From positions 1,152,001-1,216,000 of the forward strand of contig OZ001293.3 in assembly GCA_963921275.4 (NCBI GenBank): DNA of 64,000 bases. The letters run 5' to 3'. A model generated the notes under the pieces. It saw only the letters and a list, made by a program, of their open reading frames with translations. It was not told where the DNA came from and made no database searches. The stretch is from an uncultured Hormoscilla sp. GTDB taxonomy: Bacteria; Cyanobacteriota; Cyanobacteriia; Cyanobacteriales; Desertifilaceae. Below are positions 145-37,678 of the stretch, piece after piece (within the stretch, counting starts at the first letter, position 1; each line of letters begins with the position of its first letter). Position numbers and translations under genes: made by a program.

Positions 145-864
145 ATAAACCCTAGCCTAAAGGGTGACTAGGAAAGAAGTCCATGGTTAGAACAAGGGAA
201 TCCCTGTAAGCGTCGTAAACATTAACAAGCGAAAAAGGCGCTCCACCCTTGGTGCAAAATGCGCAAGCAGTCCGCGTATCAGTATTATTCTTTTACTGAT
301 ATCGTACCCTCAATAACTGTCGGCGTATAGGGGAGACCTAAAGGCTTCGCGAAATGATACCTGCCAACGAAGTAACCCCCGTGATTCTATCCGCAAGGAT
401 AAGTCAGATGTGAAGCGCATGGTCACGTGGGGAGGGATGTCCTAAAAAGCTAATGCCCGGAGTAATGCCTGGGATATGCCCACGTCGGACGGTGATAGTA
501 GGATGTTCTGGGAGAAAGTAGCTCTCTAAAAGTGCTGTACCGGTGTATCGACCCACCAGGTAGTAATGTGGACTAAAATCCTATCCAGGTAAAAAACAGG
601 GGGTACGGGCACCTGTTAGTAAAGAGCGGTTCTGGTGGTTTACCAGTTTATCCCCCGCTCACCTTCCGGAGGTAGGTAGTCAAATAGTCCCTCAGACCAC
701 CATAAAGGAGCCAAATTTCATGGGGCAAGGGACAACGGGAGTAATCCCTAGTAATTCTGTCAGTGACAGTGACCTACTACCCACAAGTAGCCTGGTGCGG
801 TGAAAGTCGCTCTTCAGGTTCGGAATGGTCGGGTCGGGGGGTGACCCCTGGATCGACCCCGATC
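145..864 (+). ncRNA. ORF-less group II intron, 3' part (interrupted by the intron at 1-144)
   Basis: Domain V-like GTAGCCTGGTGCGGTGAAAGTCGCTCTTCAGGTTC (~787-820) and domain VI ending CGACCCCGATC. Shares AACGAAGTAACCC and GGGACAACGGGAGTAATCCC with the introns at 18.5, 28.6 and 36.8 kb. Confidence 0.8.
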
Positions 865-961
865 AGCCCTTGCCCGTCCTTCCCTCCTTGTCCTTTAGCC
901 TTATTTTTTTCAGCCAGCGATAGTTAGGGACGATCGCTTCTCAAAAGCTATCCTATAGGAA

Positions 962-3347
962 ATTAAACTAAGCCAAGGAGTCACATCCTCGACTCGTCTT
1001 CAAAACCGGACGATCTGCTTTTCACCTCATCCGGCTCCTCAGTAATGCCACCCTTGTCATGGGTACGGCTATTACTACCATCATTGGCAGTCTTTATGTC
1101 GTGGCAATGTTTGTGCAACAGTTGCAAGTTGTCCCATTGGTCCTTGCCACCTAATGAGAGTGGTTTGATGTGGTCTATTTCCCACCTGTCGCTATCCTTG
1201 AATGTTAGTCCGCACTGTTGACATTTCCCTTTTTGCCTTTTGAGTAGTTTGGCTACTCGGTTATTCAACTCTGGGTTTTTGCCTAATCTTGTGCTCTAAT
1301 ATGTAAGGTTCCCGTCGTATGGGCTTGCTGTTCCTTTCACCTTTACATGTCTTACTATCTCTACACTCGCGTGTCGATATAGTTCTGTATCATCTTCCTG
1401 AAATCGCCATTGTGCATCTTGGCCAATTGACCAATACTTCCTGGTTATCCATCCTTTTGACTTGTTAGGGTGTCTTCTTTTTGCCCAATTCCACAGGATT
1501 TCCCATAGGTGCTTGTCCATTTCTGAGTAAGTCTCTTTGCTTACCACTGCTCTGAAGTAGTTCGCCCATCCCCGTATTACCGGGTTAAGTTTACTTATCA
1601 AAGCTGCTTGCGGAACCGCTTTATGATTCCTTAATATCTCCGCTAACCTTTCTTTATGCTTACCTATGGATTTATTACTGGGTTTGATGATGGTTTTGAA
1701 TCCTAGTACTTTACCATGTGCGTTTCTACCACTTCTGTATTTGCTTACCTCATATTGCCTTACATTGAAGCCCAGGAAGTCAAATCCTGCCTCTTTTCCG
1801 TTTAGCGTATGGGTTAGCCTTGTCTTTTCTGGTTTGAGTTCTAGTCCAATTCCCTTTAGCCATTTAGCTATGACATTCTGCGCATCTTCTATCATTTTTC
1901 GGTCATCGTGCAAGACTATAAAGTCATCGGCATATCTGTCAACTTCTGACTTTTGCTTTTCCTTTTGTGTCTTTGCTAATTCCATTACTTTATCCTCTAA
2001 CCCCTGTAGGGCTATATTTGCGAGTAATGGTGATATGACTCCTCCTTGTGGAGTTCCCTCCTCTGTCGGATACCATACCTTTTTATCTATCACCCCGGCT
2101 TTTAACCTTGCCCGTATCTGTTTACGGATTGGTGATGTCGTATTTAGTTTTTCCATGAGCGCTTTATGGTCAATTTTATCGAAGCATTTAGCTATGTCAG
2201 CATCTAGTACCCACTTGGGCTTGTGTTTGATACTGACAAATATGGCTCCGATTGCGTCGTGGCATCCTCTCCCTGGCCTGAATCCATAGGAGTTACCTTC
2301 AAAATACGCCTCCCATTCAGGATAAGTGCGCTATCTTCAGTAACCCCGGCGTTGCACGGTCGTACATCGTCGGTATTCCCAATGGACGCTTGGAGTCTCT
2401 CCCTGGTTTGGGTATCCACACTCGTCGCGTGGGTTTTGCCTTGTTTGAGATTTCTATCTGTCCTACCAGTTCTTGGCGCTGCTTTGGGGTCAGTGATTTC
2501 ACACCATCCACACCGGCAGTTTTCTTTCCCTGGTTATCTTGTGTTACCTGTCGTACCGTTAATTTCTTAGCAGCCTGGGAGCTTACCAGTAACCTCTGGA
2601 GCCTGCGAACCATCCGCTTATCGCCACGTTGTGCCGCTCTGTAAATCCGTTTTTGTAACTTAAAGACTACCCGCTCCAGCTTATGCCAGGGGATGTTCTT
2701 CCATTCATCCATCGGCTTGGTGCCGTGTCTATGACATTTCATTACTACTCACCGCTTTACTTTTGACATTACCGTGAGGGCGTCAGCGTATCCCACTCAT
2801 TACAAGTAGGCGTTTGCTTCTCCGCGAAATCTTTCCCAGGTATGACCTGCCTGATGGAAGCATATGTTGCGCCTTTGGTGGCTGCTCTACCTATCGACCG
2901 GTGGTAGAGAGTGCATACCTGGTTTACTTCGTTCCTACAGACGATTGTTCGTAGTTTTAGATGGATTCCTTGCGCCGGGTTTATTGTCAGTGCTTATTGG
3001 TCGGCACATCATCCGCCAATGACCTATATCCTTTCCCTTTTGGGCCAGTGTGTCAGCCTTATTACACTGGTTTACAGTGACGACGCTGCAATTCTTTGCT
3101 TTATGCTCATCATGACTACTTGCTCGACGTTGACCGGTGTAGGCTACCAGTTAGTGCGCCTTTCATTCCCGCTTTACGGATTGATGCCATCGCTACCGTC
3201 GGGAAAGTGCTGTTACTCCTGCACCTGGAGAGGTGGACTTTCACCACCATCATCTGTAAGTTGTCAGGGCTAATGGAACCCTGCCAGTGGTCCCCCGCCG
3301 GTGCTCCTTTATTGGTTCACCGGTGGTTTACACTGAACGAATCGCAC
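962..3347 (-). mobile_element. Group II intron, chloroplast-like type, RT-X-HNH
   Basis: 5' GTGCGATTCG at 3347; DV AGCCGGATGAGGTGAAA...TCCGGTTT; DVI ends TTTAAT at 962; contains an IEP ORF. Confidence 0.9.
981..2742 (-). pseudogene. ltrA: Intron-encoded reverse transcriptase/maturase/HNH endonuclease, disrupted
   Basis: RT-N (LQKRIY..TAGVDG), RPLGIPT, GTPQGGVISPLLANI, YADD, X domain (NPVIRGWANYF) and HNH (EIDHIKP..NLQLLHKHCH). Frameshift near 2330; in-frame TAG at 1296-1298 where Trp is expected. Confidence 0.9.
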
Positions 3348-3368
3348 GAAAGGTATTGTACTGTGCTT

Positions 3369-3543
3369 TCGATATCTCTGGGTCGAGGTATCTCCTGGTC
3401 GCTCGATGTTCCCCGAGGGCGCTAGGGGCACAAAGGGGGGAACATCGTACTCGCACAAAAGAGGAGATACCTCGCGCTACATGCGCTGCGCGCACCAGGC
3501 TGCAAACTCCGCCGAAGTGATCGCACTACCCCAGAGATATCGA
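3369..3543. repeat. Three nested small hairpin elements
   Basis: Nested inverted pairs TCGATATCTCTGGG/CCCAGAGATATCGA, CGAGGTATCTCCT/AGGAGATACCTCG and CGATGTTCCCC/GGGGAACATCG. Confidence 0.7.
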
Positions 3544-3576
3544 CGTGACACTGGCAGCGGTCCCCTGCTGGCTAAA

Positions 3577-4905
3577 TTACAAGAAAACAAAGGTTCCGGC
3601 TTCTGCTGCGAGTTCAGTTGCCTGAATATTCAGGAAAATTCCTAGGTCACTCCCGGCAAAGCTAATCACAGCATCACTTCCCAATTGCCTAAAGCTAAGG
3701 TCATCAATGGATGATATACCGATACGACTGATGCCAATTACATCAATACCCAGTTCAAAGTCAGTAATGGTGTTAGCCATTGAAGGTACTTCGCCATTAG
3801 CGATCCAGAAAGCGTCAGCAGCAGCGCCACCGCTGATAATATTGTCGCCACCACTGCCCACAAAAAACTTGTCCTCTCCTCGACCACCAAACAGACGATC
3901 GCTGCTACCTGGGAAGAAGATGTCGTCCCCCCGACCACCAAACAGCAGGTTATTGCCGTCGCCGTTCGAGCTATCCAGAAGGTCATCTCCCGGGCCGGCG
4001 AACAAGCTATCATTAGTATCAGCAAAAAGTCGATCGTCCCCTGTACCGCCAAACAGAAGGTTATTGCCATCGCCGTCCCCAGCGTCGAGGCGATCGTCTC
4101 CGGGACCAGCGAACAAGCGATCGCCCCTACCAGGGATTAGTTCATCATTGCCTGTACCGCCAAAGAGAAGGTTATTGCCGCCGCCGTTCGATGCATCCAG
4201 AATATCATCTCCTGCGCCACCTTCCAAAAGTTCATTTGTATCAGCAAACAATGGGTCATTATCATTATCCGTGATGTTGGGATTAACGATACTCAGACTA
4301 TTGATGCCGATCGCCCGCTCTGGTTCGGTACTACTAATAACTAGCTGCTTAATGTTAGGACTGTCGCTTCTGACACCTAGGAATATGGCTGAATTATCCA
4401 ATTCCAAAGAGGAAGTTCCAGATACTGAAAAACTTCTCAACAGCATATTATTGTCGTCAAAAGCAGAAATTAATCCTGTGAATTCAAAAGTATCATCTAC
4501 GGCTAGTTGAGCGCCTGCGCCCAACACGGGGGTATCGAAGGTAATAGTTATCGGTCCTGGGTTGCCTGGGGCAGGAGGCGGACCTGCCATGAAGCCCGTA
4601 AACAGAATATAATCTCCCGTGGCATAGTTAGTCTCTATGCCTGGTGCTGGCAGAGTGCGAAACACCAATGGCGGCGTAATGCCCGGTTCAGCAGGGGGGA
4701 TATCTACCAAAAGTTGGAGACCTGCTGGGGAGGTGGTTGAGAAGGAATTGCCTAAAGTATTGACGGAGTTGACTGGATCGATCGGGTCGGACAAGGGACC
4801 CAAACTGGACCAATCAATTTGGTCATTGCCTGCTAAGGTCGCCCGATCGCGGACCAATGTGACTGCTGTTACCCCGGGCCTGCCCGATAGACGTAAATCG
4901 TTCAT
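3577..4905 (-). CDS. Calcium-binding RTX-repeat protein
   Basis: Repeated GGxGxD nonapeptides (LFGGTGNDEL, LFAGPGDDRL) and a C-terminal TITDFELGIDVIG motif. Confidence 0.8.
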   Translation of the reverse strand: MNDLRLSGRPGVTAVTLVRDRATLAGNDQIDWSSLGPLSDPIDPVNSVNTLGNSFSTTSPAGLQLLVDIPPAEPGITPPLVFRTLPAPGIETNYATGDYILFTGFMAGPPPAPGNPGPITITFDTPVLGAGAQLAVDDTFEFTGLISAFDDNNMLLRSFSVSGTSSLELDNSAIFLGVRSDSPNIKQLVISSTEPERAIGINSLSIVNPNITDNDNDPLFADTNELLEGGAGDDILDASNGGGNNLLFGGTGNDELIPGRGDRLFAGPGDDRLDAGDGDGNNLLFGGTGDDRLFADTNDSLFAGPGDDLLDSSNGDGNNLLFGGRGDDIFFPGSSDRLFGGRGEDKFFVGSGGDNIISGGAAADAFWIANGEVPSMANTITDFELGIDVIGISRIGISSIDDLSFRQLGSDAVISFAGSDLGIFLNIQATELAAEAGTFVFL

Positions 4906-5025
4906 GCTCAACTCCTGTAATGTTGACTAATAAAATTCAGTTCGGTGGGCAGGGGCCCCCTACAGTACCCCACGTTCCCACCCGCAGCGTGGGAACGGGT
5001 TCCGACCTGTTATAGTTCCGGCCTG

Positions 5026-6129
5026 TTAGAGTGTGGTAGCTGTACTTGGCGCAGTCCCCATTTTTTTCAGCCAGCGATAGTTAGCGACGATCGTTTCCCA
5101 AAAGGTATCGTAGACGTTGTATTTCACGCCATATTCCTCGCATACTTCTGCCAAAATAGGAGCAATCTTGGGATAATGTATATGACAGACATGGGGGAAC
5201 AAGTGATGAACTACCTGATAGTTTAGTCCCCCCAGATACCAGTTCAGTAGCCAATTATTAGGAGCAAAATCTACCGCTGTTTTTACTTGAAAAATTGCCC
5301 ATTCATCATCGATCGTGTTTGTTTCCACATCTGGTTGGATAAACTCTGCTGGTTCTAGCACGTGAGCCACCATAAACACCGTGCAAATCCACAATCCATA
5401 GGTCATGTAAGCGATCGTAAAACCAATGATTGCTTCTGTGGTACTATATCCTACTGCGATCGGGATGCCAACAAATAAGCCCAGCCAAATCAGCTTAAAT
5501 CCCAGCAATGCTATCATTTCTAATGGTTTTGGTTCAGGGATGGTATTGTCTTGGTATTTGCCCTTGAACAAAATCAAATCTACATCCGCCACCGACCAAT
5601 AGAACGGAATGAATGGATACACAAACCAAATAAATATATGTTGGAATTTGTGATACCATTTATGCTCCATACTGGGAGACATCCGCACTAACCCATTCCC
5701 ATGGATTTCCACATCATGACCCAAGATATTGGTATAGGTATGATGCAGAACGTTATGGCGAAATCGCCATAAATAACTTGACACTCCGATGAAGTCGTAA
5801 ATTGAACCAAGGATCCGATTTACACGATGGCTATTAGAATAACCACCGTGATTGGCATCATGTCCGATACTAAAGCCCACCCCAGCGATCGCGAATCCGA
5901 TGGTAACACAGCCCAGCACTTTCATCCAGTAAACTGATGGCCCAAAGACCGTAAATGTCCAGGCGGAAATCACCCAGCCTAAAATAATTACTGTTTTGAG
6001 ATACATCGCTGGGTTATCTCGCGGTTTCAGGTTGGACGATGCAAACATTGCTTCAACCCGTTGATTCAGTTCTTTCCTGAATCCCACGTTTTTGCCAAAC
6101 CTTACTCGCACTGGTATCACTGTTGTCAT
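5026..6129 (-). CDS. desD: Acyl-lipid delta-6 fatty acid desaturase
   Basis: His boxes HDANH, HNVLHH and QVVHHLFP; N-terminus GFRKELNQRV..RDNPAMYLKT resembles cyanobacterial DesD. Confidence 0.85.
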   Translation of the reverse strand: MTTVIPVRVRFGKNVGFRKELNQRVEAMFASSNLKPRDNPAMYLKTVIILGWVISAWTFTVFGPSVYWMKVLGCVTIGFAIAGVGFSIGHDANHGGYSNSHRVNRILGSIYDFIGVSSYLWRFRHNVLHHTYTNILGHDVEIHGNGLVRMSPSMEHKWYHKFQHIFIWFVYPFIPFYWSVADVDLILFKGKYQDNTIPEPKPLEMIALLGFKLIWLGLFVGIPIAVGYSTTEAIIGFTIAYMTYGLWICTVFMVAHVLEPAEFIQPDVETNTIDDEWAIFQVKTAVDFAPNNWLLNWYLGGLNYQVVHHLFPHVCHIHYPKIAPILAEVCEEYGVKYNVYDTFWETIVANYRWLKKMGTAPSTATTL

Positions 6130-6262
6130 CTAAACCTCCCTCTCGAAAATCCTTGCCTTGCCATTATACCCTGTTGAGGCAACCTCAACAATTTTCCTCA
6201 AAGACCGTCGCATTGCCCCTTAGTGGCCAAGACCGTAAAGTGGGCAGTGCCCACCCTATAAT

Positions 6263-7339: not shown

Positions 7340-7427
7340 AGTATGTCTCGCGAGCAAAGTCCAGAAGTAAATTACACTTAATTCAGGACTTGTCTAGAGT
7401 TATTACATTTTCATTTAATCTTCTCGG

Positions 7428-8369: not shown

Positions 8370-8462
8370 AGATAGCGGAGAAATAGGTTAAGCTATAAAA
8401 TAGATAGCTGTACAGATAGTTGTGGAGACGATTGCGCTGCGCGCACGCTACGCGATCGGGGA

Positions 8463-9552: not shown

Positions 9553-9919
9553 TTGGGAAAGCAGAATGATCGATCTGATTCGTAGGGCGGGCGGATCGCC
9601 TGCCCGGGTTCTGCGTAGGGCGGGCGGATCGCCTGCCCGTAAGTTGTCAGCCCCGTCCCCGTCCATAGGTATTCTGTATTGAAGGAAAAATACTGAGAAA
9701 CTGCTCTGGACAGGCTCCCGATCCGATCGCCTAGGGAGTAGGTCAAGAAACTGCGTCGGGCAAGGCAATTGAGGAGTTGGTATAGTTATGCTAGCAAAAC
9801 TGCGTCCGCGCTGGGTATCGAGACAGTATGCCAACGACCATTAGCATACTCGATTTGAAACTTCTGGGTAAAGACTAAAGTCTTTACTACGAACAGGACG
9901 TTAAACAGAGAGGATTGAA

Positions 9920-11425: not shown

Positions 11426-11493
11426 GACAGTTTCGTAGGGCGGGCGTCTCACCTGCCCGGGTTAGACTCATAACAATTTAAAATTCACAAATT

Positions 11494-12711: not shown

Positions 12712-12739
12712 CCGATTAATTAAATCTTGGGAGAGAAGC

Positions 12740-13766: not shown

Positions 13767-13773
13767 CCAGCTA

Positions 13774-16779: not shown

Positions 16780-16797
16780 ATGCTTTTCCCATGCACT

Positions 16798-17566: not shown

Positions 17567-17597
17567 TTAATTAGGAATTAACCAGACTCACGTTAAC

Positions 17598-18011: not shown

Positions 18012-19772
18012 CTAGGTTTTCTTGGCACGGATAAAATACAACTGTTGATATAGAGTTCCATCTTTTTCTATAAAGGGGGATGGTTCTCTTTCTCTATCTG
18101 CTACTTTTTGATAGCTTTGCACAAACTCTCTGTGATAGTTAGCTAGGGGAACATTAACTCTACGGACAACTGCCCAATTTGCATCGCCTCGTTCTTCCCA
18201 GTTAATAAAATAGTCTAAGGATTGTCGCCATCACTTTGAATTCCTTTCCCCCAGTATTTCTCCATTAACCGATAGGTTAGCCTCGGACCATTTTTACTGG
18301 TAGCGATAAACAGAATTTCTCCTTCTGGTGCTAGATAGGAGCTTCCCTCGGCAATGAGAGTATCCATTATCAGTCTACCGCGATCGCCATTGCGGTTCCA
18401 CTCTCCGCCCCGAAATTCGTGGGCAGACTTAAGTCTTGCGTGCAATTGCTCTTCCGTATCAGGGAGTGCTGGAGGATTGAGGTAAACGCGGTCAATTTTA
18501 CCTGGTCGGGGTCGAGCTGGGAATCACTCCCCAACCCTCCAAGAGCGGAACCGGGCTTGCGACTTTCACCGCACCCGGCTACTGGGCAGTAGGGCCTTGT
18601 CATTGGTAGGATTACTGGGGATTACTCCCGTTGTCCCTCATCTCATGTAATTTCTCCCCTTTCCTGGTTGGTAAGTGGCGCTGCCGGATAACCTTTAGTA
18701 TTACCAATTTATCTGAGTCCGTTTCACCAGTTATCCCACCTTCGCATGCTAGGTATTGGGGCGTATTAGGGTTACTTTAGCCCGAGATTTCCTACTGTCA
18801 CCGACCCCTGTTTGCTTATCCCAGGCATTAATTAGGGCTTTTGCTTCTTGGGCCATCCCTCCCACCGTAGCTTGCGCTTCACATCTGACTGGTCTCGGTA
18901 GACAGCACACGATGGGTTACTTCGTTCCCTAGTATCATTTCACGATGCTTTTAGGTTCCTACTATACCCCGGGAGTTCTTTGAGTACGTTATTAGCCAGA
19001 TAGAAGAGCTAATACTAACTACCATTTCCCTTTTTTTTGGGCAAGCGCATAAGCCTTATTCCGCTGGTTCTAGTTAACGAGGTTTACATAGGTTCGCTTG
19101 TTCTAACCATTAGCATCTTTCCTAGCGGCGTCACCGGCTTAGGCTGCCAGTTATCCTACATTTAAGTCCTCGGGAGGCACCACGGCGATGTCGCTCCGTA
19201 GCACCTCCGACCGGTAGTACCCTCGACCCCCGTACCTGGGGAGGGGGAATTGAACCCCCATGATTACCAGAGTTCCTAATTTCTTAGGCTAGCGTTCCGT
19301 GTTTGACTACGTTAGACTAGAACGAATCGCACTCAATCTCTCGATTCCCTTTAACCGCAGCAAAGCTGTTGGACTGGAAACTTTGGAAATCCTTTGGGTT
19401 AAGACCATTCAGTTCCCAATTACGCTGGGCTAGGGAAACAGCATAGGGATTTAGTTCAGTACAAATTACCTTGGCTGCACCGCATTTACCAGCAACTATA
19501 CCGAACATTCCCGATCCCCCAGCAAAATCCATCACCACCTTCCCTGTCAAATCATCAGCAGCTATTAGCTGGCACATGGTCAGAGAAAATAGCGAAGAAG
19601 GTGTCCAGGCATTGGGATGGGTTTCTAGTAATATATCTAAGTCATTACTTAGACTATATTTGACAATTGTACCAGTCTCTAGGGACTGATAGTCAGTGTT
19701 ACTGTCTGCGTCATAGGTAATGATTTGCTTCTGTTCAGAAAATTTTTCTAAATCAAGTTTTGACATGTTCAT
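18012..19772 (-). pseudogene. Class I SAM methyltransferase (NPP motif) split by a group II intron, with a distal frameshift
   Basis: Exon 1 has MDFAGGSG. Splicing 19333 to 18503 gives REIE-GKIDRVYLNPPALPD in frame with ORF 18215-18445. A shift near 18217 would extend the frame to TAG at 18012. Confidence 0.8.
18504..19332 (-). ncRNA. ORF-less group II intron (829 nt)
   Basis: 5' GTGCGATTCGTTC pairs with GAACGAA; DV GTAGCCGGGTGCGGTGAAAGTCGCAAGCCCGGTTC; DVI ends CGACCCCGACC; removal restores the host frame. Confidence 0.9.
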
Positions 19773-23307: not shown

Positions 23308-23347
23308 AACTGATAATCTACGATCCCAAGCAGGAGGAGATTAAGCA

Positions 23348-23680: not shown

Positions 23681-23690
23681 AAGGGAAAGG

Positions 23691-24168
23691 AGGCGATCGC
23701 AGTCAGAAGCCCGGGGACAAAAAAGCCGCAGGCGGGGTCTTGACAAAGTAGGCTGACATGGTTAGAATAAACCAAGGTGACCGGTCACCAGTCTGGCAAG
23801 AGGTGGAAATTTAGGTGCTAGCAGGCCCGGAAAGCAGATAGTAAGGGGTGTGGTCATAAGCAGTTGATAGCCGGGTGCATCTCAGATACATGTATATAGT
23901 CCGCGCAGGCGGGCTTTGTCAATGTAGCCGGACCCTTTAGGGCTCCTACCAACGGGTTTTGACCACACCCGATAGTAAGATATAATCGGAACATCAGGCG
24001 ATCGCAGTCAGAAGCCCGGGGACAAAAAAGCCGCAGGCGGGGTCTTGACAAAGTAAGCTGACATAGTTAGAATAAACCAAGGTGACCGGTCACCAGTCTG
24101 GCAAGAGGTGGAAATTTAGGTGTTAGCAGGCCCGGAAAGCAGATAGGTAAGATACGATCGGAACATCA
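23691..24168 (+). promoter_or_regulatory. Tandem ~175-bp duplication containing a promoter and palindrome
   Basis: TTGACA-17-TAGAAT at 23740-23768 and 24045-24073, each followed by GGTGACCGGTCACC (23776-23789 and 24081-24094). Confidence 0.75.
23846..23970. mobile_element. MITE with GGGTGTGGTCA terminal inverted repeats
   Basis: 9-bp target duplication GATAGTAAG at 23837-23845 and 23971-23979. Confidence 0.8.
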
Positions 24169-24169
24169 A

Positions 24170-26406: not shown

Positions 26407-26424
26407 CGGAGGGAAGAATAACAA

Positions 26425-27372: not shown

Positions 27373-27877
27373 TTACCTCAAGTGAGGCGATCGCACTTTT
27401 ACCTGTTGGGTTTCATGCTTCCACCCAACCTACAATATAGGCGATCGCTGATGCTACCAATGATTAACGTTTTTGTTATATAATGATTATCCTACCTACT
27501 TAGAGCTAATTTAAAATGCAACAAAACTGGTTAAAAGTCGAACAATTAAAAGCGATAGCCGCGATCGCACTTTCTTTGATTATTTTGGCGATCGCCCCGA
27601 TTTTTATCAAATTACTTGAAGGCGAAATCGGTACCAACGCTACTATTTTCAACCGTCTTTGGGGTGCTGCAATTATTTTTGGATTTTGGAGTGGACTTTC
27701 GAGAATTAAAAGTCAAAAAGCCAACTCCTCCAAAGAGACCAGGAAAAAAGACTATCTACTTTTATGGGTGCATCTCAGTTAGGCGATGAGTATATTTACT
27801 CAGCACAAGTGGATTTACTGAGTCTGATTAGGCAACTAATGCGCCATTCAGGTAGGCACAGCGATGCTTCAACACCT

Positions 27878-29624
27878 ACGGTCCGCGGACGGCCCGAAAA
27901 ATCGGCACATTCTCGGCTCGCCATTGTGCCCCCGGTAATTTCACCCTTAACCCAATTTGTTTCACCAGGGACTCAACCCGACCAGAGCCAATCGAGTGCC
28001 GAGCTGCCTGCCCGTTCGCGCAGCGGCCCGACGCCAGGAGGGCTAGCCTGGTAGTCAATGATGCGCGTCTGATGGTGCTTCAAGTAGTTGATCAACCCTG
28101 TGGCTCCCCGACATTGCTGTTGGCGCAGATAACTAATCGCCCTCTGGGTCTCCCCTCGCCACAGGAGTGCACGGTCCGCGGACGGCCCGAAAAATCGGAT
28201 CTGCACGGTCCGCGGACGGCCCGAAAAATCGGATTGAGCCGGTGTCCCTTGCACCTTATTGGCATTTTCCATTAGGTGATACCAATCGAGCACTTCGATA
28301 CGTTGTTCTGGTGTCCCGATACCACTGAAAATGTTCCACACCCCATCATGACCATCTCCGAGACCGGTGAACTGCGCCCCTAGGGGCTGGGCATTCACCC
28401 ACTCAAGCAGCCCTTGATTATCCTTGAAGAAAGCCACACTGCCTTGCTCATGGACATTTAAGGCTTTGTATTCTCGCCACTCACCAGGTTGACCCTCCAC
28501 GGTCCGCGGACGGCCCGAAAAATCGGTACGAAGGCGAATCATGCCGCCATCCAAGCTGAGCTCCTGAATCGGTTCAGCTATCTCGGTCGGGGTCGAGCTG
28601 GTACTCACGTACCAACCCTCCAAGAGCGAAACCTGAAGAGCGACTTTTACCGCACACGGCTACTGGTTGGTAAGCTGCTGTCATCAGTAGGATTACTGGG
28701 GGTTACCCCCGTTGTCCCTTACCCTTTGAAATTTTACCCCTTATGGTCAATCCTATTGGACCGTTTAAGTACTTAGCTCCGGAAGGTTCGCGGAGGATAG
28801 TTCAGCAAACCATACTCGCCGCTCTTTACTAACATCTTCCCCATTCTGCTTTCCGCTTTTCGTAGGGGCTCTGAACTTTACCTGGCTAAGATTTGAATCC
28901 AAGATTCGTACTTTTGGAATTTCTTCCTAGTTCTGTGACATTAAGGTTACTTTTCCCAAGGGTGTCTTACCATATCCGTCCTACGTCTGCATATCCACAA
29001 GCATTACCCCGGGCGTTGGCTTCTTAGGACATCCTTCCTCTTCGTGGCTTGCGCTTTACATCTAACTTGTCCAAATGGGGACAGCTCACGAGAGGTTACT
29101 CCGTTCCCTGGTATCATTTCGCGATGCTTTTAGGTTCCTACTATACCCCGAGAGTTCTTTGAGTACGTTATTAGCCAGAGGCAAGAGCTAATACTAACTA
29201 CCATTTCCCTTTTTGGGCAAGCGCATAAGCCTTCTTCCGCTGGTTCTGGTTAACGAGGTTTACATAGGTTCGCTTGTTCTAACCATTAACATCTTTCCTA
29301 GCGGCGTCACCGGCTTAGGCTGCCAGTTATCCTACATTTAAGTCCTCGCTCCACACCACGGTGATGTGACTCCGCAGCACCTCCGACCGGTAGTACCCTC
29401 GACCCCCGTACCTGGGGAAGGGGAATTTAACCCCCATGATAACCAGAGTTATCTGGCTGATAGAGCCAGACCCGACTTTCACCTACTGGCTTATGCCGGA
29501 ACGAATCGCACTACCTCAGACCAGTCCTCTCGTTGAACAAAGCGTTGGAGCGTACTGTGGGAGATGCTCACCCCAGTCAGCATCGCGAGATCTTTTACGG
29601 TCCGCGGACGGCCCGAAAAATCGG
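27878..29624. repeat. Five identical copies of a 24-nt inserted repeat
   Basis: ACGGTCCGCGGACGGCCCGAAAAATCGG at 27878, 28171, 28205, 28499 and 29597. Confidence 0.9.
28585..29511 (-). ncRNA. ORF-less group II intron (927 nt) inside the transposase
   Basis: 5' GTGCGATTCGTTCC; DV GTAGCCGTGTGCGGTAAAAGTCGC..; ends CGACCCCGACC; splicing gives DWSEV-EIAEPIQELSLDGG. Confidence 0.9.
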
Positions 29625-30808
29625 CTCTCTGGTAAGAGGCATTGGCACTGACGACCCAACAACATTTTTCCACATACGGACTCCAACGAGTTCCCGGTTT
29701 AACTTGCAGTTGTTGGGCTTGAGCAGTGGTGAGGGTTAGTTTGCCCAGGATACTGGTCAGGGTGCGCTGTTTTCCGGTGCGGCGGGAAGTCGCCGTGTTG
29801 ATAAAAAAATTCCTAGTTGAGGCCAGACGTGTTCTTGGGCAAGCGCACGAACGTTTTTCTCAATGCCTTCAAGGGTGGTGAGTTCAGTGGGGTCGGCTTC
29901 CTGGTAGAGAATCGCGGCAATCGCGTCAAGATGTTGCTGGAGTTCAGCCTGCTTTTGGGAGTTCATGGGTCAAGGGTGGTCAACAGTGCCTAAATTATGT
30001 ACCGTTTTGAGGGATACAAGCACTAAGTATAATTACTCATCGCCTAACTGAGATGTACCCACTTTTATTACTCGCCGGTTTCCTTTTCTGGGCTTCCCAA
30101 ACCTCTTGGGCTTGGTCTCTCCCTCGCACTTCCGTGGCCATTTCCGAACTCTTACATAATTTTACCCCCATCTTTGTCATTTTAGGAGGGTGGCTCCTAG
30201 GCGGACAACGATTCAATGTTCAATTTTTACTCGGAACGGCACTCTCAATTATTGGTTCTTGTCTCATCGGTATCGAACATTTATCTCATTCATCCGATCG
30301 AATTCAAGGCGATCTTGCTGCTCTTCTATCCGCAGCTTTCTTAGGAGGGTATATGCTCGTTGGAGAAACGCTTTGTTATAAATTATCGACGGTCACAATT
30401 ATGTTTTGGGTTTGCACTGCGGGAACGGTTTTCAGTATCCCCGTCCTACTGATTGCAGGGATGCAATCGTTTCCAGAATCTGTCCAAGGATGGATTTTTG
30501 CAGTTTCTTTAATCCTCACAATGGTCTTGGGGCAAGGATTTTTCTTGTATGGAGTCGAACGCTTGGGGGCGAGTTTGGCTGCCGTTCTTTTTTGGCTCCT
30601 TCCCGCTATTACCGAGATCGCCGCTTGGCTCGTTTTTTCAGAAATATTGAGTTATTTGGATTGGGGAGCAATGGCAATTGTTTTACTCGGGGTTTATTTG
30701 GCAATTTCGACGCGATCGCAACCCGCGCCCGAATTAAATGAGGAAATTGCTTCGGCAAATTAGAAATACGATTAAAGCGGGTTTGGGCTTTGTAACCTTC
30801 TGGATAGA

Positions 30809-31669
30809 TTATCCAGCAAATTGGTAGGTAGTAAGGCCAGGCACAGTTGTCTTTAAGCGAAACAAATCCCCTGCCAACGGTTGCTTATGCTTGCCTGCTT
30901 CTCCCAACGCCGCACAAGCCGATGTAATGTATAATTCATCCAAGTTTGCTCCCCCGAAGGTACAACTGGTAGGGCATTCGACAGGCATTTCAACTTGGCG
31001 TTCTAGTTTGCCTTCCGGATCGTAGCGCGTGATGCGCCAACCACCCCACCATGCACTCCAAATAAAGCCCTCCCTGTCTACGGTTAAGCCATCAGGTAAA
31101 CCAGCGCTATCATCATGCACAAAAACGCGCCGGTTCGCGATCGTGCCTGGGACAGCATCATAATCGTAGGCGTAAATGGTATGTCGCAGGGTATCGGTGA
31201 AATACAGGGTTTGGTTGTCCGGACTCCACCCGATACCATTGGCCATGCCGATCCCATCTTCCATCATCTGTACGGAACCATCAGGGTCAAATCGGTATAA
31301 AGCATTATGATAACTATCCCCTAAAGTTCCCGCCCAAAAACGCCCATAACGGTCTACTTTGTCATCATTAAAGCGCGTTTGGGGTTTATGGGCTTCTGGA
31401 TCGGCAATGCATTGTAGTGAGGATGTGGCATCATCCCAAAAAGCAAACCCTTTTTGAGTCGCCATGATGATACCATCACCAGCGCGAAAGGCAACCGATC
31501 CTACTGGTAGTCCCACTTCAAAGCGTTCGTGCTTTCCTGTAGCAGGGTCAAATTTGAGAAAACATTGGCCATCAATATCCACCCAATACAATACTTGCTC
31601 TTCGGGCTGCCATATTGGTCCTTCCCCCAAGGTATTTTTGATGGCTAAAACATGCTCGATTTGATTCAT
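30809..31669 (-). CDS. SMP-30/gluconolactonase family protein
   Basis: LGEGPIW, RFND, NGIGWSPD, PDGLTVD, PTSCTFGG. Confidence 0.9.
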   Translation of the reverse strand: MNQIEHVLAIKNTLGEGPIWQPEEQVLYWVDIDGQCFLKFDPATGKHERFEVGLPVGSVAFRAGDGIIMATQKGFAFWDDATSSLQCIADPEAHKPQTRFNDDKVDRYGRFWAGTLGDSYHNALYRFDPDGSVQMMEDGIGMANGIGWSPDNQTLYFTDTLRHTIYAYDYDAVPGTIANRRVFVHDDSAGLPDGLTVDREGFIWSAWWGGWRITRYDPEGKLERQVEMPVECPTSCTFGGANLDELYITSACAALGEAGKHKQPLAGDLFRLKTTVPGLTTYQFAG

Positions 31670-31916
31670 CGTTTGGTTCTTAACAACGGGTTCATCTCAA
31701 TTGTGCAAGGGCGCTAAGTAGTTCGTAGTTCGTAGTTCGTAGTTCGTAGTTATTTTCAAATCCTCTGATCTCCAACTACCTTAGGGTTTCAACCTGTATT
31801 ACATCATTACAGGATGTGCAGTTTAAATGCGCGACAGCTTAGCGCTACGGGCACTTCATAAAAGGGTAGTGCCCGATCGGGCACTACCCTAAACGCCCCG
31901 GAGGCTAGATTTGCTT

Positions 31917-32675
31917 CTATGAAATGCACTCCTTAACAACAGGCTCTACTTCAATCCCAAGGTTCTTCGGCAGATATTGTGCTTTGCGAGCCCAAGCCTC
32001 GTTATCTGTCACAATCATCCCCCCACCACCAGTGATGAGGATTTTATTGCCGTTAAAGCTGAAACAGGCGATATCCCCTAGATGCCCCACCATACGCCCC
32101 TGATATTTTGCTCCCAAGCTTTCCGTGGCATCTTCAATGACGACAAGGTTGTATTTACGGGCCACGTCCAATATTGGCTCCATATCAACTGGGTGTCCCA
32201 AAATGTGAACGGGCATGATAGCTTTCACGCGGCGACCAGTATGCTTATTGCGTACTTCTCCGTCTTGAAAATTGCATTCTCGTTCTAGAAAGTCCGCGAC
32301 ATTCTGAGGAGACATTTGCCAATACTCTGGCTCGGCATCAATAAATAGAGGCCAAGCGCCTGCATAGCGGATGGCATTCGCTGGGGCAATGAATGTTAGG
32401 GTCGAGACGAGAACTTCATCGTCAGGCTCGATACCAGCTACTAATAATGCTACGTGTAAGGCTGATGTGCCATTGACTGTTGCAACAGCATGATTCGTCC
32501 CCACATAGTCCGCCACCATTTCCTCGAAGCGGTTTACATAAGCCCCAACGGAGGAAACCCAGTTGGTATCGAGGCACTCCTTGATATATTTCCACTCGTT
32601 GCCTCTAATTTCGGGAACGCACAGGGGAATAAAGCCTTCAGCAGAAGGAACTCCTGGTTCAAAGGGCGTAGACAT
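31917..32675 (-). pseudogene. LegC-like DegT/DnrJ aminotransferase, 3' truncated
   Basis: WVSSVG, NGTSALH, EDATESLG, SFNGNKI; ends shortly after KAQYL, far short of family length. Confidence 0.8.
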
Positions 32676-33640
32676 CTGGTCGATACCTCTCAATATGCTC
32701 TTCTAGCCATGTAATGGTCAATTTCAGCCCTTCTTCTAGGCTCTGGCTCCCAACCTAGCAAATCTCGGGCTAAAGTATTGCTAGCGAGAAGGCGATCGAC
32801 TTCACTCCCCTCGGGTCGCAAGCGTTGCTCGTCCGTTTCTATGACAATCGAATGCCCCGTCAAGTCAGCAATTAACTGGGCCAGATCGCCAATACTAATT
32901 TCCTGTCCCGATCCCAAATTAACCGTTCGACCCATAGCTTCGGGTGTAGCTGCAGCCATGATAAAACCATTAACCGTATTGGCAACATAGTTAAAATCTC
33001 GGGTCGGTTGCAAATTTCCCAACCTAATTTTTGCATTTCCTTTGAGGCATTGCGTAATAATCGTGGGAATCACGGCGCGAGTTGATTGGCGCGGTCCAAA
33101 TGTGTTGAAAGGTCGCACCGTGACTACTGGTAAGCCGAAGGAAAGATGAAATGCCTCCACTAGCTTATCCGCGCCAATTTTGCTAGCAGAATAGGGGGAC
33201 TGCCCTTGCAAAGGGTGAGCTTCATCTATAGGCACATAGCGGGCTGTCCCATAAACCTCACTGGTGGAGGTATGGACCACTCGTTCAATGTCCAGTTCTC
33301 GCGCCGTCTGTAACACATTTAACGTACCTTCTATATTTGTCCGTACATAAGACTCTGGTGCGCGATATGAATAGGGTATTGCAATTAATGCGGCTAAATG
33401 AAACACGATTTCCGTGCCTTGCATCGCTTGACATACGCTGTCGCGATCGCACACATCTCCCGCGATCGCTTCTATTTCGTGACGAACTGGCGATTTATCT
33501 AACCATCCCCAAGTGCCCAGGGCATTATAATGAACCAAACCTTTAAAATTGGCTCCTAATTCTACCAATTTCTCTGTTAGGTGGCTGCCAATAAACCCAC
33601 CCGAACCGGTGACTAATACGCGCTTTCCTTGCCAATTCAA
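32659..33640 (-). CDS. LegB-like NDP-sugar 4,6-dehydratase (C-terminal frameshift)
   Basis: GSGGFIG, HLAALIAIPYSY, QSPYSASK, RPFNTFGPRQS; the SLEEGLKLTITW tail is in another frame after ~32743. Confidence 0.85.
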
Positions 33641-33653
33641 AATGCACTCCTTT

Positions 33654-34724
33654 TTACTTACTTTGAAAATCTTTTTGTGCTTGTTTATAATCATCAGATT
33701 TGCCAATGTCTAGCCAATACTCAATCATCGGAAAATTGGCAATCCGAAGGCTACTATCTAGCAATGTTTGCATCAGGTCTGTCATATCAAACCGCTGCCC
33801 CACTGGGATATAAGGCAGTACCGAAGGCTCCAACATATAGATGCCTGCATTGATGAGGAAGTTGACGCGGGGTTTTTCGCTGAGTTGCTTCAGATAAGGT
33901 CCTTCTGATTCCATGACGCCATAGGGAACTTGGTATTCGTATTGGCGAACTGCGACCGTTAATGCCGCCTTATAGGCACGGTGAAAAAACCACATGCCTT
34001 GGAAATCAAGTTTCGTCAAAATATCCCCATTGATTACCAATAAGGGCCAGTCTGGGTTTTCCAGCAAGCCCAATGCCCCAGCAGTACCCAAGGGAGTATC
34101 TTCGGAAACATAGGTGATGTCGATCCCAAAAGAACTACCATTGCCAAAATGATTAATAATTTTCTCTGGCAAGTAATGGAGTGTGACGTAGAATTGCTTA
34201 ATTCCCACATCCCTTAACTGCTCGATAATTAACTCCATAATTGGGCGATCGCCGATTGGGAGCAGAGGTTTAGGCAAATCATTGGTCAAAGGACGCAAGC
34301 GGCTTCCAAACCCACCCGCCATAATCACCGCTGACAAGGGCAGTTCATCGGAGGAGATCCTATCATCTCGGGATATCAAGTTGACTACACGATCTTCTTC
34401 ATCCACCAAGGGCAGGTGATTGACAGAAACATTTCCCTTGCCGTTCATCAGATGCATAGCTTCCGAATAAGATATTTGTTGTGAGGCCGTCATCGGATTA
34501 AGGTCAGCAATTTTCAGGCACGGTTCGTTGAAAGACACCCCCCTCAACATCGCTCGTCGAATATCACCGCAGGACAGGGTGCCGACAAGTTGACGGTCAT
34601 TTTCGCACAGGAGCAACAGGCTCGTCTCGGCACAGTCTAATATTGGAATGGCCTCTGATATGGGGGTTTGGGGCGAGATTATGATTTGCAGTAGGGAAGA
34701 CTCAATCGAACCCATCATGCTCAT
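33654..34724 (-). CDS. CBS-domain sugar-phosphate nucleotidyltransferase
   Basis: GDIRRA CBS pair, MAGGFGSRLRPLT, PKPLL, NGDILT, WLDIG. Confidence 0.88.
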   Translation of the reverse strand: MSMMGSIESSLLQIIISPQTPISEAIPILDCAETSLLLLCENDRQLVGTLSCGDIRRAMLRGVSFNEPCLKIADLNPMTASQQISYSEAMHLMNGKGNVSVNHLPLVDEEDRVVNLISRDDRISSDELPLSAVIMAGGFGSRLRPLTNDLPKPLLPIGDRPIMELIIEQLRDVGIKQFYVTLHYLPEKIINHFGNGSSFGIDITYVSEDTPLGTAGALGLLENPDWPLLVINGDILTKLDFQGMWFFHRAYKAALTVAVRQYEYQVPYGVMESEGPYLKQLSEKPRVNFLINAGIYMLEPSVLPYIPVGQRFDMTDLMQTLLDSSLRIANFPMIEYWLDIGKSDDYKQAQKDFQSK

Positions 34725-35367
34725 TCCTCCTCAATAATCTAGCTGGATTCCCTATCAATATTTGACCGTCTGGCACATCCTTAACCACAACTGCACCCGC
34801 ACCGATCGCAGAACCCTTTCCTACTTTAATTAATTGACGGATCGCGGCACCGATACCAATATGAGTATTATCGCTAACATGTACAGCACCAGCCAGTCTA
34901 GCACCTGTAGTGATATGAACGTGGTTTCCGATAACGCAATCGTGTTCGACGATCGCCCCACTATTTACAATGACGTTCTCGCCCACGATCGCGCCCGCGT
35001 TAATTATTGCACCAGCCATAACAGTTGCCCCTTCTCCTAAAACTGCTGAAGGTGAAATAATAGCACTAGGATGAACGGCTGTCACGGGTTTCATACCCAG
35101 GCTGCGGGCAAACTCATACAGCCGTCGGCGTGGGACAATATTGGATGTACTCCCCAATCCAACAAAAAAATACTCAACCCCTTGGGCTTTAATCGAAGGG
35201 AGCCGATCGTCATCGCCCAAGATCGGCACGCCAAGTAAGGACTTACCCTGTAATTCTGGGTTTGGATCGAGCAGACCCACCAACTTGTACTGACTAGATT
35301 GTTGAAGAATCTCGATCGCCACTTTGGCGTGCCCTCCTGCGCCCAAGCCAATGACTTCTGGAGACAT
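34702..35367 (-). CDS. NeuD/PglD-like sugar acetyltransferase
   Basis: GAGGHAKV, VHPSA, hexapeptide repeats, VEHDC, GNPAR. Confidence 0.88.
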   Translation of the reverse strand: MSPEVIGLGAGGHAKVAIEILQQSSQYKLVGLLDPNPELQGKSLLGVPILGDDDRLPSIKAQGVEYFFVGLGSTSNIVPRRRLYEFARSLGMKPVTAVHPSAIISPSAVLGEGATVMAGAIINAGAIVGENVIVNSGAIVEHDCVIGNHVHITTGARLAGAVHVSDNTHIGIGAAIRQLIKVGKGSAIGAGAVVVKDVPDGQILIGNPARLLRRNEHDGFD

Positions 35368-36037
35368 TAATCCACCTCCCGAATTAGCATAAATGCCTCT
35401 GCATAGTCCACCCCAATGCTTGCCCCACGATAGCGAGCCAACGCCCGAATTGCCGACGGTCCGCGAGGCCAAGGATCTGAGTGAGTCTCGCTCTCATATA
35501 ACCCCATAATTTCGACCTTTTGCTCGATGTAGGGCGTAATGTCGCGGTAAACATTGGGAACAAACGCGCGATCGGGCTGCGGTGGGGCTGCTTCAGTCGA
35601 AGAAAGGGTTTCATAAGAAAGGACGCGCCGCACCCCCCATTTACGCATATAAAATGTCTTCAGCACGGACATCGTAGCCTTGAAAACGACGGCATGATCG
35701 GAATTCACATCACCACCATGAACCAGATAAACTACTTCTGGCTTAACCTCTTGGATGACATCCCGAATGCGGCCAATCAGATCGGCCAGTGGAATTGTGT
35801 CAAGACGAATGGTTGGGAATCCCAACTTAAAAAACTGCTGCATTTTATAGGCCATCGAGGCGATCGCATTACTTCAGCGGCCTTAACCTGAATCGTCTCC
35901 GCCGACCACTGCGGCTCGTATGTCTCCGTCACCACCAGCCAGAACAAGCTGTCCTCTTCTGCGACATGTCCCAGCAACGTCCCCCCACAACCGAGGGTCT
36001 CGTCGTCAGGGTGAGGAGAAATCGCGAGTACTTTCAT
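35367..36037 (-). pseudogene. PIG-L family deacetylase, frameshifted
   Basis: PHPDDETLGCGG and DVNSDH..YETLSSTE..AEAF lie in different frames; shift near 35860. Confidence 0.8.
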
Positions 36038-36825
36038 GCAGGTCCTCCTATACCAGACCATTTGTCAATCGTCCAAGATAGTTGACCCCCATCAATAATG
36101 ATTGACTGACCGATGAGAAATGATGCCTCATCAGAGGCGAGAAAAGCAAACAAATTCGCCACCTCCTCAGGATTTCCAGAACGACCGAGTGGTATCTTAT
36201 TGGGATATTCCCGCACAAAGGTATCGCCTGCACCTGATTGTTTTGTGAGATCCGTGATAATAAAACCGGGCGAAACGCAATTAACTCTGATATTATAGGG
36301 TGCTAACTCAGCGGCCATCGTCTTGGTAAGCAAAACAACCCCCGCTTTAGAAGCATTGTACGCCGCCGATTCTCTCTCTGCCACATGACCATTGGTCGAT
36401 CCCATATTAATAATCGCGCCTCCTTTGCCTTGTGCCATCAACACCCGCGCCACCTGCTGTCCCAACAAAAAAGTCCCCTTCAGATTCACTGCCATCACTC
36501 TATCCCAAGCCGACTCAGAGTGTTCGAGAAAGGGCTCGATCGCCACTATACCAGCATTGTTGACTAGCACATCGATCTCACCAAAGTATTCCGCTGCCTG
36601 CTTGACCAGGGCCTCACAAAACGCGCGATCGGAAACATCACCGGTCATCCCATAAACCTCACCACCCCACTGACTCAACTCTGCAGCCGCCACCACAATC
36701 CGCTCTGGTACAAGATCGCAAATCAGGAGCTTCGCGCCCTCTTGCAAAAACTTCTGGGCAATTGCCTTACCTATACCACGTCCCGCCCCAGTGACGATCG
36801 CACTTTTTTCTTTTAATCGCAACAT
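36034..36825 (-). CDS. SDR oxidoreductase (FabG-like)
   Basis: TGAGRGIG, NNAG, YNASK, VSPGFI. Confidence 0.9.
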   Translation of the reverse strand: MLRLKEKSAIVTGAGRGIGKAIAQKFLQEGAKLLICDLVPERIVVAAAELSQWGGEVYGMTGDVSDRAFCEALVKQAAEYFGEIDVLVNNAGIVAIEPFLEHSESAWDRVMAVNLKGTFLLGQQVARVLMAQGKGGAIINMGSTNGHVAERESAAYNASKAGVVLLTKTMAAELAPYNIRVNCVSPGFIITDLTKQSGAGDTFVREYPNKIPLGRSGNPEEVANLFAFLASDEASFLIGQSIIIDGGQLSWTIDKWSGIGGPA

Positions 36826-36827
36826 GA

Positions 36828-37678
36828 ATTAGGGGTCGAACTGGGGGTCACCCCCCAACCCTCCCATTCGGAACCGGACATGCGACTTTCACCGCATCCG
36901 GCTACTGGGAAGTAGGGCCTTGTCATTGCTAGGATTACTGGGGATTACTCCCGTTGTCCCTCATCTCGTGTGATTTCTCCCCTTTCCTGGTTGGTAAGTG
37001 GCGCTGCCAGATAACCTTTAGTATTACCATTTTCAAGTCTGTTTTACCAGTCATCCCACCTCAGCTACGCGAGGTATTGGGGCTTGTTAGAGATACTTTT
37101 GCCCAAGATTTCCTACTTTCACCAACCCGCGTCTGCATGTTGAGGCATCCTTACCTATTCCTCAACGTATCCATAGGCATTACCCTAGGCATTAGCTTCT
37201 CGGGCTATCTCTCCCCCCGTGGCTTACGCTTTACATCTAACTAGTCCAAATGAGGACAGCACACGAGAGGTTACTTCGTTCCCTGGTATCATTTCGCGAT
37301 GCTTTTAGGTTCCTGCTTTCCTCCGGGAGTTCTTTGAGCACGATGCTGGCAAGCAGATACTACCAGCACTAACTACCATTTCCCTTTTGGGCCAGCGTAT
37401 AAGCCTTATTCCGCTGGTTCGGTGTAACGAAGTTTACACAGGTTTGCCTGCTCTAACCTTGAGCATCTTTCCTAGCGGCGTCACTGGCTTAGGCTGCCAG
37501 CTATCCTACATTTAAGTCCTTGCTTCGCACCACAGCGATGTGACTCTATAGCACTAAGGACCGGTGTTACCCCCGTACCTGGGGAGAGGGAATTTAACCC
37601 CCATGAATACCAGAGTTACCAGTTTGGACCTGGCCTAGTGTTCCGTATTTGACTACGTTAGACTAGAACGAATCGCAC
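36828..37678 (-). ncRNA. ORF-less group II intron (851 nt) in the 5' UTR of the sugar operon
   Basis: 5' GTGCGATTCGTTCTAG; DV GTAGCCGGATGCGGTGAAAGTCGCATGTCCGGTTC; ends CGACCCCTAAT; highly similar to 18504-19332. Confidence 0.88.

Follow-up and report, generated by a model that had tools for sequence, protein, structure and literature searches.

Spliceosomal introns are presumed to descend from group II introns. The pairing of short and long interspersed nuclear elements (SINEs and LINEs) shows that a non-coding element can keep the RNA features used by a foreign reverse transcriptase (RT) and come to outnumber its driver. Among cyanobacteria, 17 of the 28 introns of Thermosynechococcus elongatus lack an open reading frame (ORF), and these ORF-less TeI3 introns are served in trans by driver intron-encoded proteins (IEPs) (Mohr 2010, PMC2882425). 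Arthrospira platensis, with 101 introns and CL-type IEPs, holds the reported prokaryotic maximum (Miura 2022, PMC8919778), and a group II twintron with ORF-less mini-introns has been described in Trichodesmium (Pfreundt and Hess 2015, PMC4649490). Here, we describe ORF-less group II introns in an uncultured Hormoscilla sp. (7.03-Mb assembly GCA_963921275.4), starting from a 64-kb stretch of one contig (OZ001293.3, 1152001–1216000). This whole stretch is called the window, and window positions are used throughout. The literature searched, which was a limited library, contained no report of introns in Hormoscilla and none of proliferating non-autonomous ORF-less group II introns.

Four related introns in the window, c1 to c4, represent four different subfamilies of one large, old, and exclusively ORF-less lineage, called c-type here. 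They are group II introns that have a working-looking ribozyme and encode nothing. Selection on their domain IV (DIV) acts at the RNA level, and the domain is not debris in decay. We propose, with a probability of roughly 0.68, that they are SINE-like non-autonomous introns mobilised in trans via a docking frame retained in DIV. The four introns are the following:

146–864, plus strand: c1, ORF-less intron of 891 nt, of which the 3' 719 nt lie here; DIV at 496–779, Rfam RF00029 match at 786–863
18504–19332, minus strand: c2, ORF-less intron of 829 nt, subfamily F4 (4 copies); RF00029 match of 41.9 bits
28585–29511, minus strand: c3, ORF-less intron of 927 nt, subfamily F2 (17 copies); DIV at 28668–28972, of the "long" type
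36828–37678, minus strand: c4, ORF-less intron of 851 nt, subfamily F9 (2 identical copies); DIV at 36910–37118, RF00029 match of 44.5 bits

Aligned in intron orientation, the four introns have a mean column identity of 70%, and c2, c3, and c4 begin with GTGCGATTCG. RF00029, which models domains V and VI (DV/DVI), has a gathering cut-off of 40 bits. This score is reached by two of the four copies, c2 and c4; c1 scores 29.4 bits, under the cut-off, and a profile hidden Markov model (HMM) of the intron end still detects all four 3' ends. No ORF of at least 80 amino acids was found on the intron strand inside c1 to c4, none of the 122 tblastn matches to a resident RT query (E ≤ 10) fell inside them, and Rfam at E ≤ 1 over positions 1–40000 placed no family inside any DIV. 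An earlier note on this DNA, made from the sequence alone, had called four elements with DV/DVI and without an IEP at these positions, and these calls were confirmed.

The architecture of DIV is given here for c2, with coordinates counted along the c2 row of the alignments used for pair counts:

18587–18797, minus strand: DIV of c2 (211 nt)
18791–18797 with 18587–18593, minus strand: helix P1
18783–18788 with 18640–18645, minus strand: helix P2
18773–18778, minus strand: AAAGUA loop
18768–18772 with 18655–18659, minus strand: helix P2b
18608–18637, minus strand: P3, a GNRA hairpin
18597–18603, minus strand: AUGACAA loop

Covariation was scored in an alignment of 33 subfamily-representative DIVs (A3), which has a mean column identity of 51%. 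The helices scored were P1 (7 bp), P2 (6 bp), P2b (5 bp), and the outer and inner parts of P3 (4 bp each). P1 is the basal stem, the long-range helix P2 joins the bases right after P1 to TGAGAT in the 3' motif block, and AAGUA sits in an asymmetric internal loop between P2 and P2b. P3 is a hairpin with an internal loop, covarying stems, and a GNRA cap (GUAA, GCAA, GUGA, or GAAA). Another hairpin with an AUGACAA loop (P4, 3 bp) adjoins the 3' strand of P1. In A3, 96.2% of 852 cells were paired, compared to 80.6% in column shuffles (0 of 500 reached the observed value) and 41–53% in slid controls, where the 3' partner was moved by 1–3 columns; 20 of the 26 pairs showed changes on both sides. An independent alignment (A5) comprised 23 DIVs, taken from four congeneric species, after 17 of 40 stretches had been dropped because the 5' strand of P1 was unfindable or the contig ended. 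Pairing in A5 was 90.1%, compared to 76.9% in shuffles and 36–52% in slid controls, with both sides changing in 19 of 29 pairs, and this alignment also supported the 3-bp P4 helix that closes the AUGACAA loop. The mean pairwise identity of the DIV scaffold equals that of DI–DIII (0.67 for each). It is 0.35 in the DIV interior, which has three architectures of about 150, 210, and 290 nt.

The stems quoted in the earlier note as closing DIV (TAGTAGG/CCTACTA, CAGTAGG/CCTACTG, TGGTAAG/CTTACCA, and AAGTAGG/CCTACTT) are present as described, and all four copies contain AAAGTA and GGGACAACGGG(A/G)GTAA(T/C)CCC(C/T)AGTAAT...TGACA. In the structure above, AAAGTA is the P2/P2b internal loop, "GGGACAACGGGAGTAATCCC" is P3, and TGACA lies in the P4 loop. 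The view that DIV is a selected RNA rather than ORF debris was upheld by the covariation of five helices in A3 and A5 and by the lack of significant IEP similarity. Two other interpretations of DIV motifs were tried and rejected. AAAGGAG..N7..ATGAGATGA was considered as a relic Shine-Dalgarno sequence with a start codon, but the covarying helix P2 has TGAGAT as its 3' strand. CCUAA...UGGAU was considered as an 11-nt tetraloop receptor, but P2b pairs CCCU with GGGG.

Searching the genome with profile HMMs for the two intron ends gave 343 5' ends and 493 3' ends, and nesting-aware pairing produced 323 pairs. Full-length ORF-less copies of 600–1050 nt account for 290 of these pairs and form 41 clusters at 90% identity or 25 clusters at 80%. 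The largest subfamilies are F0, with 140 copies (61 identical), and F1, with 74 copies (19 identical). By their signatures, 394 of the 493 3' ends are c-type (like c1 to c4), 75 are Y-type, like the ORF-containing intron Y described below, and 24 are other. The DIV-tail HMM had 384 matches in the genome, and RF00029 gave 867 first-look candidates, with 148 of the 150 matches listed over the cut-off. Intron DNA makes up 530,767 of 7,034,909 bases, or 7.54% of the genome. GTGCGAT begins 285 of the 290 copies. The hallmarks of the c-type ribozyme are a 5' end of GUGCGAUUCG, the DV sequence AGCCGKRUGCGGUGAAAGUCGC, and a DVI ending in ...CUCGACCCC; the likely branch A, located by eye from the DVI pairing, precedes the 3' splice site by 8 nt. 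The spread of one family to four sites within 38 kb, as it had first been described, turned out to be four subfamilies within a genome-wide population.

Insertion sites were analyzed by removing the intron in silico and scoring success as the restoration of frames of at least 70 codons on both sides. At the assigned boundaries, frames were restored at 19 sense and 18 antisense sites out of 126 for F0, 12 sense and 4 antisense out of 66 for F1, and 4 sense and 1 antisense out of 15 for F2. The correct 3' boundary is one base past the HMM end, which is where the earlier note had placed it; offsets of −1, 0, and +2 restored 0–5. Since excision restores frames at one offset, the boundaries are exact and a target-site duplication is absent. 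The 140 F0 copies have 122 distinct flank pairs and the 74 F1 copies have 64, and the 5'-exon motif is family-specific. A DI loop at a fixed position, exon-binding site 1 (EBS1), is complementary to intron-binding site 1 (IBS1) in F0, F1, F2, and F4; in F0, AGACUC pairs with GAGUCU. For F9, the subfamily of c4, EBS1 and IBS1 are complementary at 5/6 positions by eye. Antisense copies are, by their orientation, not spliceable from the host mRNA. Antisense genic insertions probably inactivate genes, and many copies may be tolerated damage.

The introns have also inserted into each other. F0 was found five times in the DIV tail of another F0, between P3 and P4, as twintrons of ~1741 nt, and these five copies share the flank pair AACGGAAGTAATTCCTATTAAGTCT and CACCTATGAAAAGGG. 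F1 was found in a DIV that belongs to a different subfamily, and DIV thus serves as a homing site, too. In addition, 18 c-type composites of 1.4–2.9 kb carry two tails.

None of the 30 larger paired c-type elements has an RT of its own; all are nested ORF-less introns or contain a nested Y-type intron. Since no c-type intron in this genome carries an RT, the lineage is non-autonomous, which agrees with the earlier note. In other genera (genomes G098, G050, and G234), some ORF-containing introns do have a DV/DVI of the c-type. In the G098 and G050 introns (about 1290–1580), DV/DVI is ~80% identical to that of c2 over 75 nt, and the C-terminal part of the IEPs extends far beyond the HNH motif. 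These two introns are candidates for the ancestor lineage of the ORF-less family. No cognate IEP was found in the Hormoscilla genome, where all 123 matches to the IEP of an intron with c-type DV/DVI in another genus are at most 54% identical (full-length matches). The genome has 25 stop-free IEP frames of at least 560 codons, all in Y-type introns. The intron that gave this type its name is in the window:

962–3347, minus strand: Y, ORF-containing intron of the Y-type ribozyme lineage; RF00029 match at 962–1039, 26.8 bits

The IEP of Y is broken into three frames, 2317–2742 with RVT_N, 1296–2156 with RVT_1 and GIIM, and 981–1268 with HNH, which together give the Pfam architecture RVT_N + RVT_1 + GIIM + HNH. 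The closest solved relative of its RT/X part is 6me0_C (E 7e-50), a T.el4h-type maturase/RT entry. Where the label CL is applied to the resident IEPs, it follows the usage for cyanobacteria generally in Miura 2022 (PMC8919778) and is not phylogeny-based here.

ORF-containing introns share the frame of DIV. The 13 unique DIVs of the resident ones all have a covarying P1, AGTAG at 3–20 nt before the start codon, and an ORF-enclosing helix (GCARTG/CAYTGC). They also have a CTGCCA-NNNN-TGGCAG-type hairpin, mostly with GNRA loops, within the codons T-A-S-D-G-S, and CCC-ATGACAA-GGG adjoining the 3' strand of P1. From other cyanobacterial genera, 25 loci of the same IEP class were inspected by eye, drawn from 60 of the 301 genomes with a match. 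A 3–4 bp stem closing an AUGACAA-like loop was seen in 23 of them, with at least 10 stem sequences, and AGTA[GA] was seen no more than 30 nt upstream of the called start in 16; several of the other nine had a mis-called start or were truncated. In ORF-containing relatives, the AUGACAA hairpin overlaps the last IEP codons and AAGUA lies just upstream of the IEP start codon. The conserved DIV periphery is a class-wide ancestral frame around the ORF, and it is both a remnant of the ORF flanks and selected RNA. Its retention here without coding constraint is itself evidence that it works as RNA. The motifs had been put forward as marking a distinct lineage, and this novelty is lost, given that they flank the ORF in ORF-containing cyanobacterial introns. 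A blastx search of the 33 DIVs against 47 resident IEP frames found no significant match (best E 0.19). Together, the lack of a cognate IEP, the 25 open Y-type frames, and the shared DIV frame make mobilisation in trans the most economical reading.

The distribution of the DIV tail was followed with a covariance model of 82 positions (R1), which matched 150 of 150 scored candidates in this genome. It matched all four other species of the genus, three with 29–30 of 30 scored and one with 1 match, and none of 9 genomes from two other genera of the family. Among 151 genomes, one from another family (G413) had 3 weak matches. The best is in a ~450-nt group II-like mini-intron at about 1226–1674 (minus strand), which begins with GTGCGATTCG, has DV/DVI and a P3 hairpin whose loop is GAAA, and directly follows a 2-oxoacid dehydrogenase gene, past its stop codon. 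R1 had no match at E ≤ 1 in four cyanobacterial genomes of other genera that are rich in introns. A BLAST search with the whole of c2 against 401 cyanobacterial genomes gave 19 with a match (2 candidates per genome scored), and the matches outside this genome covered DV/DVI only or were pieces of at most 121 nt. In named genome records, the exact P3 pattern occurred in 8 stretches of Hormoscilla metagenome-assembled genomes and as 7 single matches in unrelated bacteria, presumably by chance. Among the checks that the earlier note had proposed, the search of other cyanobacteria with a covariance model places the DIV tail in 4/4 congeners and, within the 151 genomes, almost nowhere beyond the genus, and the comparison of IEPs with DIV gave no significant match (blastx E 0.19; nhmmer E 0.025) alongside strong covariation.

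In the mechanism that we propose, splicing and retrohoming would most likely rely on the RT/maturase from resident Y-type introns. The DIV frame would most likely be the docking platform for this trans-acting IEP, equivalent to DIVa, and P3 possibly adds a tertiary contact. By diversifying their EBS loops, the c-type introns could reach new target sites. IEP binding to DIV, mobilisation in trans, and splicing in vivo are what we infer from the sequences. Circumstantial support for supply in trans comes from the 25 open IEP frames and from recent bursts that left identical copies at different sites.

Several observations weigh against this mechanism. By BLAST, c1 to c4 are only partly identical to Y-type introns, at about 65–80%, and DVI differs. 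Cross-recognition by a Y-type IEP has to be assumed because the ORF-less and ORF-containing ribozymes differ clearly. Searches with DIV profiles (nhmmer) against 10 resident ORF-containing introns were not significant (best E 0.025), and the case for a shared frame, therefore, rests on position, short motifs, and structure. P2 is poorly supported in the ORF-containing introns, as the 13 sequences are little varied and include some mismatches. In the "short" interior, module B has a strongly conserved sequence that four helices would fit, but just 1 of its 15 pairs is double-changed. The genic insertions of F0 are about half antisense (18 compared to 19 sense), and those of F1 are sense-biased (12 compared to 4). 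Lastly, c3 has no RF00029 match at E ≤ 1 because the lower helix of DV in F2 is mispaired and its loop is non-GNRA.

Another possible explanation is that DIV is an extra folding or tertiary-contact domain, for example with the P3 GNRA loop docked in a helix receptor, so that a compact, nuclease-resistant, and largely protein-independent intron is stabilised and IEP docking is secondary or absent. In P3, covarying stems are combined with a loop that remains GUAA, GCAA, GUGA, or GAAA, conservation of the scaffold equals that of DI–DIII, and P3 is retained even in the ~450-nt G413 mini-intron, all of which fit such a role. We consider this explanation unlikely, since no receptor was identified, the equivalent hairpin is non-GNRA in several ORF-containing relatives, and the position of AAGUA beside the IEP start codon fits a protein-binding or translational-control site better. 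DIV could also be the neutral debris of a deleted IEP gene, conserved because the copies are young. The large recent bursts, such as the 61 identical F0 copies, are compatible with this, as is the 3' tail, which can be read by eye in the IEP frame as S-N-P-T-N-D-K, compared to S-N-S-R-T-H-D-K in Y. Nevertheless, the covariation in A3 and A5 contradicts it: across 33 subfamilies with 51% DIV column identity, 96% of the helix cells are still paired via compensatory changes. In four other species the structure is maintained as well, and IEP similarity is not significant, which leaves neutral debris extremely improbable.

It is also very unlikely that the copies are immobile fossils spread by segmental duplication or recombination, or that DIV has been kept as a landing pad for twintron nests. 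Some flanks are indeed shared, including two flank pairs that have 6 F0 copies apiece, and the host ORF of c3 is repeated; the five flank-identical F0-in-F0 insertions, the F1 copy in the DIV of another subfamily, and the 18 two-tail composites would suit a landing pad. These explanations are largely contradicted by the distinct flanks of 122/140 F0 and 64/74 F1 copies with an IBS-like motif that matches the EBS1 loop, the lack of target-site duplications, and the exact excision that restores ORFs. We, therefore, retain mobilisation in trans via a DIV docking frame as the preferred reading. In kind, this is what the earlier note had suggested, namely a selected RNA in a non-autonomous lineage that is probably an IEP docking frame; its view of motif novelty and of scale did not survive.

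The earlier note had also treated c1 as partial and had listed neither Y nor a second ORF-containing intron, X, whose 5' end opens the window:

1–145, minus strand: 5' end of X (the first 145 nt of an ORF-containing intron), with the remainder upstream to about −3964

The 5' end of X is at 145, with ...aaacgaatcgcac at 133–145 (reverse complement GTGCGATTCGTTT). BLAST annotation of −6500 to +1000 showed that X is a ~4.1-kb ORF-containing intron inserted antisense inside c1 and that it hosts two nested ORF-less introns, F1 (sense) and F0 (antisense). The 5' 172 nt of c1 were found upstream of the window at −4135 to −3964. Thus, c1 is a complete 891-nt intron that looked partial in the window because X had split it into two separated halves.

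The host of c2 is a methyltransferase gene, interrupted in sense orientation. Its exon 1 matches PrmA/MTS methyltransferase profiles, and with c2 removed the joined frame runs into ...DRVYLNPP.... Between the 3' end of c4 and the downstream ATG of a short-chain dehydrogenase (SDR) gene (36034–36825) lie 2 nt. An empty-site joint for c2 or c4 was not found among four DNA runs of relatives, where one contig ends at 36827. The host of c3 is an ORF of 319 codons that has no Pfam match and recurs elsewhere in the genome, and a contig of a related strain lacks 27758–30060, which includes c3 and this host ORF. The DV of c3 and F2 joins subtype-mismatched strands, 5' AGCCGUGUG... with 3' ...CUCUUCAGGUU, yet F2 has 17 copies at 15 sites.

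Some further observations were made along the way. The peptide DFSGRPRTV occurs three times in the ORF interrupted by c3 (27973–29859), suggesting repeated insertion of a short DNA repeat. The related-strain contig that lacks c3 has ~2.5 kb of extra DNA between 31701 and 31972. Positions 23897–23920 resemble Rfam CRISPR-DR28 (30.1 bits, under the cut-off of 35), and a congener locus (1376–1399) scores 36.6 bits; metagenome contigs have raised depth and many loose ends at 23901/23942. This suggests a dispersed short repeat and not a CRISPR array. Contig C3 of the assembly (31,420 bases) has 17.6% G+C, compared to 42–49% in the other six contigs, and may be foreign to the cyanobacterium, e.g., host organelle DNA or DNA of another organism.

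The findings have practical uses. Unannotated introns break gene calls, as with the methyltransferase gene that c2 interrupts, which was called as two ORFs; the DIV-tail model and the exact boundaries permit such introns to be annotated. Since the DIV frame can be read from covariation, the RNA features needed by a heterologous IEP become testable, and so does the relation between intron proliferation and the small population size of an obligate symbiont. More broadly, and tentatively, at somewhat less than even odds, this genome could carry the largest group II load in a prokaryote (~490 3' ends, 7.5%), in the form of an ancient ORF-less hyperparasite of the IEP of another lineage. Of the ancestral DIV it would have retained nothing but the docking frame, with new conserved RNA modules added inside, in a host that is a sponge symbiont. 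If true, this would be a bacterial system organised like the proposed spliceosome precursor, with many degenerate introns sharing one trans-acting protein, and the antisense genic insertions would be signs that the genome of a host-restricted symbiont is still eroding.

For the step from one maturase per intron to a shared supply in trans for many introns that lack a protein, the bacterial example has so far been mainly the 17 introns of T. elongatus. The Hormoscilla genome is a larger natural experiment, with hundreds of copies in dozens of subfamilies, found genus-wide and lacking a cognate IEP. The principle of trans-mobilised ORF-less introns is already established because Mohr 2010 (PMC2882425) described it in Thermosynechococcus; what is new here is the scale, the separate ribozyme lineage without a cognate IEP, the lack of recognisable ORF remnants, and the elaborated interior.

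The two systems have much in common. In both, ORF-less copies outnumber ORF-containing ones, EBS divergence leads to new sites, twintrons arise by insertion into DIV, and DIV is structured with covarying elements. The T. elongatus introns are mobilised in trans, and those of Hormoscilla most likely are as well. The resident IEPs are also nearest, among solved structures, to 6me0_C, a T.el4h-type entry. The differences are clear as well. There, 17 of 28 introns are ORF-less, compared to 290 full-length copies (about 390 3' ends) here. The T. elongatus introns are close derivatives of a resident ORF-containing parent, with discernible N- and C-terminal ORF remnants, whereas the c-type introns form a separate ribozyme lineage without a cognate IEP and have no significant remnants, only short positional motifs.

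Like A. platensis (Miura 2022), Hormoscilla is a filamentous cyanobacterium with a large intron expansion; its 493 3' ends by HMM are several-fold more and dominated by ORF-less introns, although the counting methods differ and the comparison is approximate. Like Trichodesmium (Pfreundt and Hess 2015), it is a cyanobacterium with nested ORF-less introns and much non-coding DNA, but the arrangement there is a single nested one, whereas here the family is genome-wide and nests occur in both orientations. As in SINEs and LINEs, the RNA features recognised by an RT appear to be kept, in what is here a putative partnership, but the c-type introns would move by ribozyme-based retrohoming and not by target-primed reverse transcription of a Pol III transcript.

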